A stretch of DNA of 42,623 nt from Pseudomonadota bacterium. Lineage in GTDB: Bacteria > Pseudomonadota > Alphaproteobacteria > Azospirillales > Azospirillaceae. The notes beneath the pieces are model-generated. The model was not told the origin of the DNA, searched no databases, and was given only the letters and a program-made list of their open reading frames with translations. Location of the stretch: positions 1 through 42,623 of the forward strand of contig JAEZID010000196.1 in the NCBI GenBank assembly GCA_023416195.1. Direction: 5' to 3'. Below, piece after piece: positions 20,404-41,696 of the stretch (its first letter is position 1; each line of letters begins with the position of its first letter). The position numbers and the translations under genes were made by a program.

Positions 20404-20764
20404 CGGGTTCCCTTTCCCCGAAATCCCATGGTGATGCTTCCGCTCTCAACAGCCGCGCCCGCGTTGAATTCCACCGCCCGCACGCAAACCGGACAGATCG
20501 GTCATGACCGGTGGGCATGGGTCGGCGCCCACGCAAACGGCACGCCGTGAAAGCCAGGTCCTGAGTATTGGCGCGACCAACCGTCCGAAGGAAAACGACG
20601 TTCCGAAATAAAAATGGAAACCATCCTCTTGCATGGGAAAACATCACCCCCATCTGTTCGTCGTTGGCTCCGGGCCCCTCTGGCGGTCCATTGGTTGCGG
20701 ACCGTGATGTCGGAGCCCTTCACCTGCGGGGACGAACAAACCGTCCCACATCTGGAGGGTTCGT

Positions 20765-38751: not shown

Positions 38752-40203
38752 TCAGATGATGACCCCGGCGGAGACTGGCAGCTGGTCCAAGGCCTCGGCC
38801 AGGATGGTCAGGACGCGGCGGGTCTCGGCGCGGTCGATGGGGGCGCCGAGGCAGATGCGCAGGGCCTCGGGAATCTCGGAGGTCGTCGCGAAGGTGTCGC
38901 TGACCACGGCGGCGATGCCGCGGGTGCGCAGGTGGGTGGCAAATTCGCCGCGCGTCCAGCTGTCGGGCAGACGGAGCCAGAGGTGGAAAGCCTCCCGCTT
39001 CGATTGGAAACTGCGCGGCGGAAGGATGGAATCGGCAAGCTGGCGGCGCGCCACGGCCTCGGCGCGAACGGCGTCGAGCACCGCATCGGCCGTTCCGTCG
39101 GCGATCCAGCGATGGGCGATGGCCGAGGTCAGCGGCGAAGCCATCAGCGAGGTCGCCCGCTGCGCCGCCGCCAGCTTCAGCGCTTGCCGGGCGTTTGGAG
39201 CCACCACGTAAGCGATGCGCAGCATGGGCGACACGCACTTGGCGAGGCCGGAGACGTGGAAGGTGATGTCCGGTGCGAGGGCCGCCAGGGGACGCGGCGG
39301 GTCCGTCGGCAGAGGGCCGTAGATGTCGTCCTCGATGATTGGCACACCATGCTCGCGCGCCGCCGCGACGACGGCGTTGCGGCGCTCCAGCGGCATCGTC
39401 GCGGTGGTCGGGTTGTGGAAGGTCGGCATGCAGTACAGCGCCTTGGGGCGATGCTGCGCCAGGACCGCGCGGAGCGCGTCGGGGTCGATGCCGTCCGCGT
39501 CCATGGGAACGCCGACGACGCGCAGGCCGAGCTGGGCGGCGACGGCCTTGAAGCCCGGATAGGTCAGCGCCTCCGCGCACACCGTATCGCCGGGCCGGGC
39601 AAGCGCGGTCAGCAGCGCCAGAAGGGCGCCCTGGGTGCCGGGACAGACGAGCAGGCGCTCGGCCGGCAGATCGGGCAGGCGGCGGCGCAGCCAGTGGGCG
39701 CCCGCCGCGCGATCAGCGTTGGGGGCGCCGTTGGGATCGCCGGCCTCGGGGTAGCGCAGGATGGCGGGAAGGCCGGTTCCGGACAGCACGGCGGCCATGC
39801 CCCGGTGCAGGCGGTCCAGCAGGCCCGGCGCGTCCGGCAGCGGCGGCTGGTTCATGGTCATGTCCACGAAGCCGGCCGGACCGGTGGGGATGGTACCGGT
39901 GGAGACGGAGCGTTCCGGTGCGCGGGGAGCCTGGGCGGAGGTGAGCGCGAGAGCGCGGACGAAGGTGCCCTGCCCCACCCGCGCGTCGATCAGGCCGCGA
40001 TGGCGCGCCTCCCCATAGGCGCGGCTGACCGTGGTGAAGTCGATGCCCATGCGTTCGGCCAGCAGGCGTTGCGGCGGCAGGCGCTGGCCGGGGACGAGGC
40101 GCCCGGCGCGGATGTCCTCGGCGATGGCATCCGCGATGGCGAGGTAGACGGGCCTGTCCCGCCCCTCGATCTCCGGAACCCAGAGGCTTTGATCCGGCTG
40201 CAT
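38752..40203 (-). CDS. MocR-family regulator (GntR HTH plus PLP aminotransferase domain)
   Basis: GQRLPPQR..TTVSRAY..GQGTFV, PTFHNPT, IIEDDIYG and SGLAK. Confidence 0.93.
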   Translation of the reverse strand: MQPDQSLWVPEIEGRDRPVYLAIADAIAEDIRAGRLVPGQRLPPQRLLAERMGIDFTTVSRAYGEARHRGLIDARVGQGTFVRALALTSAQAPRAPERSVSTGTIPTGPAGFVDMTMNQPPLPDAPGLLDRLHRGMAAVLSGTGLPAILRYPEAGDPNGAPNADRAAGAHWLRRRLPDLPAERLLVCPGTQGALLALLTALARPGDTVCAEALTYPGFKAVAAQLGLRVVGVPMDADGIDPDALRAVLAQHRPKALYCMPTFHNPTTATMPLERRNAVVAAAREHGVPIIEDDIYGPLPTDPPRPLAALAPDITFHVSGLAKCVSPMLRIAYVVAPNARQALKLAAAQRATSLMASPLTSAIAHRWIADGTADAVLDAVRAEAVARRQLADSILPPRSFQSKREAFHLWLRLPDSWTRGEFATHLRTRGIAAVVSDTFATTSEIPEALRICLGAPIDRAETRRVLTILAEALDQLPVSAGVII

Positions 40204-40262: not shown

Positions 40263-40343
40263 GAGCGCCGCCGTTTCCGCTCCGCGCCGCACACGGAAAA
40301 AATGCGGCACGCGGTGGAGATCGGCGCGCCGCCGCGCGGGCAG

Positions 40344-40406
40344 AAAAATGGCCGCCGGGTTTGCCCGGCGGCCTGAAGTCTAGGGAGGAAACGCCCTAAA
40401 GCGTAG
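40344..40406 (-). ncRNA. mmgR: MmgR / suhB (alpha-r8) family sRNA
   Basis: The minus strand reads GGGCGTTTCCTCCCTAGACTTCA, then terminator GGCCGCCGGG-CAAA-CCCGGCGGCC-ATTTTT. Upstream TTGATT-N16-CATAAT carries a PhaR-like TGCGCTGCGGCA. The 5' end is approximate. Confidence 0.8.
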
Positions 40407-40497
40407 ACCCCCATTATGCCGCAGCGCACAATATAATCAATATCGTAGGATTTCGTATTTTCGTTGAAATCCGCACATAATAGCGATACGAAGCTTC

Positions 40498-40581
40498 TTA
40501 GAGCCTGAGTCTAGGGAGAAGCCCGCAAAGGGCAGAAGGGGTATGACGGCGCTGAGAACAGCAGCCTCATACCCCTTTTTT
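40498..40581 (+). ncRNA. Predicted novel sRNA divergent from and complementary to MmgR
   Basis: Plus-strand terminator with a U6 tail and no plus-strand CDS upstream. Contains GCCTGAGTCTAGGGAGAAGCCC. Possible promoter TTGAAA-N17-TACGAA. Confidence 0.45.
40536..40581 (+). terminator. Rho-independent terminator, plus-strand orientation
   Basis: AAGGGGTATGA pairs with TCATACCCCTT and is followed by a T-run to 40581. Confidence 0.7.
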
Positions 40582-40625
40582 AATGGCTGCGCTTCAGGTC
40601 GGCGTCGGGTGGATTGCGGAGCCGG

Positions 40626-41696
40626 TCAGGACGAGGCCGGCCGCGTGCTGTCGCGGACCACCAGTTCACACTCAAGGTTGCGCTGCATCGCCAGCGCCTT
40701 GTCGTCGCCGAGGCGCGCGAGGATCAGACCGGCGGCCAGTTCGCCGATTTCCCGCTGGGGCGGGCGCACGGTGGTCAGGGGCGGGATGCAGGAGGCGCTG
40801 AAGGTCAGGTCGCCGAATCCGACCACGGCGAGATCGTCGGGAACGCGCAGCCCCTTCCGGTTCGCCTCGAACAGCACGCCAAGCGCCAGCGCGTCGTTTG
40901 AGCAGACCACGCCGTCGATGTCCGGGTGGGTGGTCAGCACCTCGTCGATCAGCCAGATTCCGACCGGGGTGGAGGCGGTGTCGGGGGCGGTGAAGGCGAT
41001 GGGCTCGTGCAGGCCGCGCCGCCTCACCTCGTCCTCATAGCCGTCGGTGCGGCTGCGCACGCGCATGTCCTGATGCACGGCGGCGCCGATGTAGGCGACC
41101 TTGCGGCTGCCCTGGTCGTAGAGGTGGCTGGTCTGGCGCCGGCCGACCTCGAAATGGGAGAAGCCGACGCTCATGTCCACCGCCGGGCTCTGGGCCGAGG
41201 GAATGTCCCAGGTCTCCACCACCGGAACCCCGCAGGAGCCGAGCATGGCGCGCGTCCGGTCGGTGTGGTGCAGGCCGGTCACCACCATCGCCGCCGGGGA
41301 CCAGGCGAGCATGGCGCGGATCAGCTCCTCCTCCCGCTCGGGGTCGAACTCGCTGACGCCCAGCAGGGTTTGATAGTGCGCCGCCTGGAACGCCTGTTGC
41401 AGCGTGTTGTAGGTCTCGGCGTAGAAGGAGTTGGTGATCGACGGCAAGATGACGCCCACCGTCCGGCTCTTGGCCGCGGCGAGGCTGCCGGCGACGAGGT
41501 TCGGAACATAGCCCAACTCGTCGATCACCGTGCGGACGCGGGCGGCCAGCTCCGCCGACACGGCTTCCGGACGGCGCAGGTAAAGCGAAACGGTGCTGGG
41601 CGACACGCCGGCGGCGCTGGCCACGTCCGTCATGGTCAAACGCTGGGTGGCGCGGCGCGACCGCTTGCGGGGCGTTCTCGACGGGAGCAAGGCCAT
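40626..41696 (-). CDS. LacI-family regulator (gluconate GntR-like)
   Basis: TMTDVASAAGVSPSTVS, ELGYVPN, CSNDALALG and PPLTTV. AAGGAAGG RBS. Confidence 0.92.
   Translation of the reverse strand: MALLPSRTPRKRSRRATQRLTMTDVASAAGVSPSTVSLYLRRPEAVSAELAARVRTVIDELGYVPNLVAGSLAAAKSRTVGVILPSITNSFYAETYNTLQQAFQAAHYQTLLGVSEFDPEREEELIRAMLAWSPAAMVVTGLHHTDRTRAMLGSCGVPVVETWDIPSAQSPAVDMSVGFSHFEVGRRQTSHLYDQGSRKVAYIGAAVHQDMRVRSRTDGYEDEVRRRGLHEPIAFTAPDTASTPVGIWLIDEVLTTHPDIDGVVCSNDALALGVLFEANRKGLRVPDDLAVVGFGDLTFSASCIPPLTTVRPPQREIGELAAGLILARLGDDKALAMQRNLECELVVRDSTRPASS

Follow-up and report, generated by a model that had tools for sequence, protein, structure and literature searches.

Across the Alphaproteobacteria, carbon storage and nutrient uptake are controlled by sRNAs of the MmgR type (alphaR8), which act as anti-Shine-Dalgarno regulators. 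To our knowledge, the first sponge of alphaR8 sRNAs to be described was CrfA; its description dates from 2025 and is confined to Caulobacter. Sibling genes of alphaR8 that lie next to each other or in tandem have reportedly been described by Lagares et al. in 2016, a study cited in PMC12559287.

CrfA of Caulobacter crescentus is a sponge of the alphaR8 sRNAs SisA-D (Vogt et al. 2025, PMC12559287). As set out in the sections of that paper used here, CrfA uses a G/A-rich loop to pair with the alphaR8 10-mer in SisA-D, lowers the levels of these sRNAs in an Hfq-dependent manner and de-represses their targets, the evidence being experimental (RIL-seq, probing and compensatory mutants). The same sections mention QrrX, a sponge of the Qrr siblings in Vibrio.

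The window analysed here, a stretch of 42,623 nucleotides of Azospirillaceae DNA, contains an mmgR gene and, back-to-back with it, a conserved module built on a second copy of the mmgR body. We consider the chances about even that this module encodes a plus-strand sRNA of ~83 nt, carrying an MmgR anti-seed and acting as a sponge or decoy. The predicted RNA would resemble CrfA, as the latter is presented in those sections, in being an independent sRNA that uses a G/A-rich complement of the alphaR8 core UUUCCUCCCU to antagonise all siblings, the anti-Shine-Dalgarno seed being masked. The anti-alphaR8 site of CrfA lies in its second stem-loop, however, and the sections used do not describe its gene as adjacent to its targets, whereas the window element derives visibly from an alphaR8 gene copy, stands back-to-back with mmgR and is known from sequence alone. 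CrfA was compared by its published description, and a search of Rfam with the plus-strand element of the window returned only a chance-level miRNA match (E 0.88). QrrX would be a parallel in concept, as an sRNA dedicated to antagonising a whole multi-copy family of sRNAs, but its family and its organism are unrelated, and the sections of PMC12559287 used here do not present it as derived from a copy of its target. Like the tandem alphaR8 siblings, the window holds a direct repeat of an sRNA body beside a full gene, but those siblings are complete genes on one strand, whereas the window copy is truncated at both ends and appears framed for the opposite strand.

The initial annotation of this DNA, which proposed an anti-MmgR sponge at the site, knew of no description of the arrangement, and this needs qualifying. 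Because CrfA sponges the alphaR8 family (SisA-D; PMC12559287, in the sections used), the kind of element is already known. A reversed, adjacent alphaR8 copy was not found described in the literature search, the scope of which stopped short of supplements, including Azospirillum sRNA lists. What would be new, if the predicted RNA is real, is a sponge derived visibly from a copy of its target gene, as a flipped alphaR8 duplicate, and placed back-to-back with that target.

A second copy of the mmgR body

The features of the region are listed below, with coordinates of the window.

38752 to 40203, minus strand: MocR-type GntR/aminotransferase regulator gene, downstream of mmgR (Pfam GntR and Aminotran_1_2)
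40335 to 40411, minus strand: mmgR (alphaR8; Rfam RF00519 'suhB') sRNA gene (cmscan 50.2 bits against a gathering threshold of 41, E 1.5e-7)
40373 to 40350 (stem) and 40349 to 40345 (U tract), minus strand: mmgR intrinsic terminator, called by consensus scan
40413 to 40440, minus strand: mmgR promoter from a promoter scan, TTGATT (40440-40435), 16-nt spacer, CATAAT (40418-40413)
40456 to 40494, strand not assigned: invariant block of 39 nt with a candidate plus-strand promoter, TTGAAA (40464-40469), 17 nt, TACGAA (40487-40492)
40499 to 40581, plus strand: predicted sRNA of ~83 nt, its putative 5' end and extent placed from block, anti-seed and terminator
40503 to 40520, plus strand: anti-seed GCCUGAGUCUAGGGAGAA, which forms the seed half of the truncated alphaR8 copy and is complementary to core and linker of MmgR
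40521 to 40533, plus strand: small hairpin GCCC-GCAAA-GGGC, complement of the alphaR8 5' hairpin SL1 (from folds and alignment with mmgR SL1)
40534 to 40581, plus strand: intrinsic terminator, made up of a strong hairpin at 40538-40575, lengthened by A/G-U pairs, and T6 behind it at 40576-40581
40626 to 41630, minus strand: LacI-family regulator gene, lying upstream of the hairpin and read in the same direction as mmgR (Pfam LacI and Peripla_BP)

The spacer of the mmgR promoter contains TGCGCTGCG (40428-40420), which by eye fits the PhaR core YGCRNYGCR; this core motif and the S. meliloti mmgR site were taken from the portion of PMC12542648 consulted. A. soli (G001) has at least seven copies of RF00519 above the cut-off and further ones below it, some of them adjacent (C22, C26), so alphaR8 is a multi-copy, duplicating family here, a picture that agrees with the sections of PMC12559287 used. 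A TGC-N6-GCA (PhaR-like) box was seen by eye upstream of six of the eight A. soli RF00519 matches displayed (L081-L085 and L088), and the same box, which fits the PhaR core motif, is present in the window's own mmgR promoter. When a plasmid database was searched with the region, 11 records matched, all of them only over mmgR (query 8-101), and the second copy was matched in none. Two of the 11 records have the end of a GntR gene ~50-60 nt upstream of mmgR.

All strings and coordinates of the initial annotation (40371-40396, 40503-40524, the hairpins, the T tract, TTGAAA at 40464 and TACGAA at 40487) were recovered in the window. GCCTGAAGTCTAGGGAGGAAACGCCC at 40371-40396 is the complement of the bona fide mmgR, and GCCTGAGTCTAGGGAGAAGCCC at 40503-40524 is the second copy. 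A repeat search found the exact 11-mer AGTCTAGGGAG at 40377 and 40508 on the same strand, a spacing of 131 nt. Counted as 10-mers with one mismatch, the repetition did not exceed chance (two matches against a shuffle mean of 1.17, with at least two in 32 of 100 shuffles). Gapped local alignment of the two minus-strand units gave a score of 37, which only two of 500 shuffles reached. Minus-strand positions 40536-40503 (34 nt) are homologous to mmgR 40407-40371 (37 nt), and the aligned stretch is the entire mmgR body: 5' end, hairpin SL1 and seed, up to the foot of the terminator. On this alignment the second copy is a real copy of the alphaR8 body. The repeat noticed at the outset was genuine, but its extent had been understated by leaving out SL1; and because the alignment spans the whole body, the GCCC-GCAAA-GGGC hairpin, present at 40521-40533 as annotated, is no independent feature but the complement of SL1.

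Read on the minus strand, the second copy resembles MmgR/alphaR8 (RF00519; S. meliloti MmgR) in its 5' hairpin and in the greater part of core and linker. The SL1 hairpin is intact as GCCC-UUUGC-GGGC, and two small deletions in the 10-mer region shorten the family core UUUCCUCCCU to CUUCUCCCU; the slightly shortened core kept on the mmgR strand is CUUCUCCCUAGACUCAGGC. Unlike a family member, the copy has neither a terminator nor a PhaR-type box of its own, and the sole terminator lies on the opposite strand. Beyond CUCAGGC on the minus strand come 8 variable nt and then the invariant 39-nt block, with no conserved stem or U tract of a minus-strand terminator behind the copy, and the TGC-N6-GCA or PhaR-type promoter box is absent upstream of it in all three genomes compared. 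The RF00519 model gave no match over 40503-40581 even at E<=10 (gathering threshold 41 bits), and none of the 43 A. soli matches falls on the orthologous second-copy site. Lacking terminator, box and model match, the copy is a truncated derivative and not a member of the family. Coding by a small ORF was considered for a plus-strand ATG at 40543 and for a minus-strand ATG within the hairpin, and was rejected by eye, the frames being lost in A. soli and/or G050.

Conservation and distribution of the module

BLAST searches with the region covered 68 genomes of Azospirillum and 129 of the family. The module is carried by the window, by A. soli (92-97%) and by one more Azospirillum, G050 (84-90%), that is, by two of the 129 family genomes searched. 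A three-way alignment shows that the conserved unit extends from the mmgR terminator (~40341) to the T tract (~40584) and no further. Between the window and A. soli, 79 of the 82 positions of the module (40503-40584) are the same and three differ, against 53 same and 30 different among the 83 positions of the syntenic non-coding flanks (Fisher p 1e-7); between the window and G050, the second copy has 33 same and two different positions and the block 39 and none, against 8 same and 15 different in the spacers between copy and block (p 1.5e-6 for the copy, 5e-9 for the block), all these p-values being generous since the segments were picked after the alignment had been viewed. The anti-seed (40503-40520) is kept at 18 of 18 positions in A. 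soli and at 18, with one indel, in G050, and the small hairpin (40521-40533) is invariant in all three genomes. For comparison, coding DNA of G050 and the window is only 75-86% identical. These alignments support the view that the copy, the small hairpin, the large hairpin and the plus-strand T tract are one conserved module under purifying selection.

The initial annotation had held two fallbacks in reserve, a decayed mmgR duplicate and a hairpin that is only the terminator of the LacI gene, and both fared poorly. As an inert relic, the locus would be a functionless truncated tandem duplicate of mmgR, its hairpin a bidirectional terminator of the upstream gene and its block an mmgR regulatory site. 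Such a relic would suit a family that is multi-copy and often duplicates in Azospirillum, as the seven RF00519 copies over the cut-off in A. soli illustrate, and the module is confined to a small clade and hence young. The copy is not decaying, however, and a decayed duplicate is disfavoured for that reason: three of 82 positions differ in the module and 30 of 83 in the flanks, in two comparisons the copy shows markedly stronger conservation than the spacers and flanks around it, on a par with that of the mmgR seed, and the U tail on the minus strand is eroding while the T tract on the plus strand is kept. We hold an inert relic to be very unlikely.

The second fallback is answered by synteny. 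In the window the LacI-family gene upstream of the hairpin is 97% identical to its counterpart in Azospirillum soli CC-LY788. The G050 locus has an EamA transporter gene on its left, a PEP carboxylase gene (ppc) that converges on the hairpin, and LacI ~3.9 kb further. Of the seven LacI loci inspected, six have no such hairpin downstream of LacI, namely those of the five further orthologues from Azospirillum or MAGs (81-88%) and that of Hohaiivirga grylli (73%). Since the hairpin follows ppc in G050 and is missing after LacI in these loci, it belongs to the conserved unit and not to the LacI gene.

A covariance model of the plus-strand element, run over the 68 genomes, gave four matches at E<=0.1, two of which were the known loci. 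The other two (G026, G014) were rejected as unrelated GC-rich palindromic repeats with no seed motif. A metagenome scan with the 19-nt second-copy string returned three stretches (one unrelated low-GC sequence, 40-43%), which were set aside as chance matches. Between the T tract and the LacI stop, a ~21-nt GC-rich stretch of the window (40588-40608) has many short matches of 91-100%, scattered over most Azospirillum genomes and each with E ~0.03-0.1, which may be chance or a short repeat. Elsewhere in the window, the terC RNA motif (Rfam RF03067), a known cis-regulatory element, was found at 20662-20722 on the plus strand (61.3 bits against a gathering threshold of 39.9).

Strand, candidate promoter and predicted pairing with MmgR

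The fold of 40489-40583 on the plus strand has a free energy of -48.6 kcal/mol (z -7.18), and none of 200 shuffles was equally stable. At 40538-40581 this strand has a GC-rich stem-loop followed by at least five U, as in an intrinsic terminator, although a simple scan made no terminator call because the stem is bulged. The T run behind the strong hairpin is T6 in the window, T5 in A. soli and T5 in G050, which agrees with the U-tract having first been annotated on the plus strand. On the minus strand the tail of the same hairpin reads UUCU, UCCU and UUCC in the three genomes, T-to-C changes having been acquired; an ordinary upstream-gene terminator in A. soli (L088), examined for comparison, has U5 on the gene's own strand. 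The polarity of the terminator favours the plus strand in all three genomes. Both neighbouring genes, as supported by Pfam, are on the minus strand, and it was rightly noted at the outset that no plus-strand gene needs this terminator.

The conserved unit ends at the mmgR terminator on one side and at the T tract on the other, so that a terminator facing outward closes it at either end, as in a pair of divergent sRNA genes. Purifying selection by itself has no power to name the strand, and the pointers to strand are anatomical. A double change was seen in none of the 28 predicted pairs, covariation being absent because the module was found in three genomes only. In G050 (L090, G050:C221), at the equivalent of window ~40572-40600, the hairpin is followed by three tandem repeats of the tail CCCCTTTTTGAATC-NGGN, a triplication (18 nt, slippage-like) affecting the region of the T tract.

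The half-copy could instead belong to a transcript of the mmgR strand, one that starts at a promoter missed so far or that comes from the upstream gene and runs through the weak, UUCU-tailed hairpin. The product would be a long two-seed precursor or isoform ending at the mmgR terminator, or a seed-bearing 3'UTR element. Selection is equally compatible with the minus strand, on which the copy retains an intact SL1 and most of the core (CUUCUCCCUAGAC). Adjacent same-strand alphaR8 matches do exist in Azospirillum, two of them on A. soli C22, both below the cut-off, and two in genome G033 (L155) at 941-1017 and 1139-1211 on the minus strand (64.2 and 34 bits), and adjacent alphaR8 siblings are mentioned in the sections of PMC12559287 used here. 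Such a transcript would nevertheless have no family promoter box upstream of the copy, and between the copy and the mmgR promoter G050 offers no conserved hairpin or U tract. The upstream gene differs, being LacI in one case and ppc in the other, which makes a co-evolved 3'UTR unlikely, and the conserved T tract on the other strand would go unexplained. We regard a role on the minus strand as clearly unlikely.

In the plus-strand direction the copy is the complement of 40371-40407 with three small gaps, an extended complementarity to the MmgR seed. The gain from co-folding with MmgR was calculated for a hypothetical RNA of 40499-40583(+), with shuffling of its 35-nt head as the control. The gain was -16.5 kcal/mol, using GAGUCUAGGGAG and its flanks, against a mean of -6.5 for the shuffled heads, one of 300 of which reached -16.5. 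The A. soli version gave a negative gain, from -9.7 to -25.6, with all eight A. soli RF00519 matches tested (seven over the cut-off and L088 at 33.7 bits). Pairing of the predicted RNA with the MmgR seed, as first annotated, is borne out by the co-folding gain beyond shuffled heads. Plain RNAduplex energy is uninformative, at -43.0 for the pair and -43.3 on average for dinucleotide shuffles, 252 of 500 of which did equally well. Since the complementarity follows from the homology, co-folding shows capacity and not function. Were the 5' end further upstream, the window fold would sequester UCUAGGGAG in a 9-bp hairpin, which is not conserved in G050.

The block at 40456-40494 is identical at 39 of 39 positions in both A. 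soli and G050. At up to three mismatches it was found nowhere in A. soli (G001) or G050 except at its own locus. It holds the two hexamers, TTGAAA at 40464 and TACGAA at 40487, that had been annotated as a possible plus-strand promoter, but TACGAA is a poor -10 in which the usual final T is missing, and a consensus scan called no plus-strand promoter over the block. The alternative hexamers CATAAT (40476, plus) and TATTAT (minus) were rejected by eye for having no -35 at usable spacing. The block ends 4 nt past TACGAA and is followed by 8 variable nt and then by the anti-seed, an order that makes it a candidate for the pattern expected of promoter, start region and RNA. A divergent promoter shared with mmgR, as originally proposed, is not what this arrangement suggests: the two promoters would be separate and back-to-back.

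Relative to the mmgR start the block lies at about -50 to -88, a typical activator position, and it could alternatively be the site of an upstream regulator (activator) of mmgR. This would be one form of a functional module with another job, a DNA-level operator or upstream-activator site controlling mmgR; in the other form, an sRNA would use the G/A-rich stretch on C/U-rich mRNA sites. The identity of the block in all three genomes and the PhaR-like core in the mmgR promoter itself are in keeping with such roles. A DNA operator, however, leaves unexplained both the homology of the conserved stretch to the mmgR body and a terminator with an oriented T tract, and the block, being unique in both genomes, is no shared regulon motif. 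Another job for the module is in our judgement unlikely. Points to be set against a sponge all the same include the invariant block, which could serve as an mmgR activator site, and the hairpin, which in front of mmgR would also be of use in insulating it from transcripts that run on from the co-directional gene upstream.

The preferred reading remains the plus-strand sponge, which would have arisen and would act as follows. A duplicated alphaR8/MmgR body (5' hairpin and seed, 40503-40536) would have lost the family promoter and terminator on the mmgR strand and been re-framed for the opposite direction, with the invariant block and its candidate promoter upstream and a U6-tailed terminator downstream on the plus strand. 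The resulting ~83-nt RNA (roughly 40499-40581, plus strand) would carry, in GCCUGAGUCUAGGGAGAAG, the complement of the anti-Shine-Dalgarno core that MmgR has in common with its paralogues. If it behaves as CrfA does towards SisA in Caulobacter, the predicted RNA would bind MmgR-family sRNAs, with Hfq as the probable platform, cover their seed and perhaps hasten their decay. Seed masking would in turn de-repress the targets of MmgR. What the sequence comparisons show is the homology, the complementarity, purifying selection on the module and the polarity of its terminator; transcription, the promoter and 5' end, pairing in vivo and any physiological effect are inferred, and an effect of the predicted sponge on PHB would be pure conjecture.

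A candidate anti-alphaR8 element linked to tRNA-Gly in Azospirillum

The sequence TCTAGGGAG occurs at ten sites in A. soli, five of them in RF00519 genes, one in the second copy, three seemingly unrelated and one beside tRNA-Gly. The last lies in an unannotated element of ~115 nt that adjoins tRNA-Gly(GCC) (G001:C26:14481-14601; L152:1577-1696, plus strand). The element is present in 22 of the 68 Azospirillum genomes with a mean column identity of 93%, and is located on small replicons of A. brasilense and A. argentinense. It comprises, in order, a -35-like box (TTGAC), a 5' arm UUUCCUCUC, the stretch GGUCUGGGGAGGAAA, which is complementary to the alphaR8 core, a small hairpin, and a strong terminator ending in U7-9. 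Of the 22 genomes, 21 have an identical GGUCUGGGGAGGAAA, A. soli having an A at one position, and a C follows it in 21 of the 22. The 5' arm is predicted to pair with the anti-seed of the element, and in the predicted helices G-U alternates with C-G or A-U in some genomes, which fits the anti-seed strand only. On that strand no family of Rfam matched.

Neither BLAST nor a covariance model detected homology between the tRNA-Gly-linked element and the window element. The two have the same order of anti-alphaR8 stretch, small hairpin, terminator and U run; they differ in that the tRNA-Gly-linked element has its own 5' arm pairing with the anti-seed, and in their distribution, with 22 of 68 Azospirillum genomes against three for the window module. 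In G033 (L155) the tRNA-Gly-linked element is followed by the two RF00519 matches on the same strand, and the A. soli arrangement is convergent, so the orientation of the element relative to its alphaR8 neighbours differs between species. We propose the tRNA-Gly-linked element as a candidate genus-level anti-alphaR8 (CrfA-like) sRNA. Its distribution shows terminator-bearing predicted RNAs with an anti-alphaR8 stretch to be a conserved feature of Azospirillum, a parallel that counts in favour of a sponge in the window.

More tentatively, and at somewhat short of even chances, Azospirillum may make alphaR8 sponges by reversing duplicated bodies, with a young, clade-specific one back-to-back with mmgR and an older one by tRNA-Gly in about one third of the genus. 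If true, this would be a direct route, visible in the sequence, for the birth of an anti-sRNA from the gene of its target. Should there be no plus-strand RNA, the locus would still be a truncated sRNA copy under clear purifying selection, needing another explanation. If the plus-strand RNA exists, sponging of alphaR8 sRNAs would extend beyond Caulobacter to a second order, and a sponge could arise by the re-framing of a duplicated target gene on the other strand. Target and antagonist would then be wired as divergent neighbours with different promoters, the PhaR-like box being on that of mmgR only.
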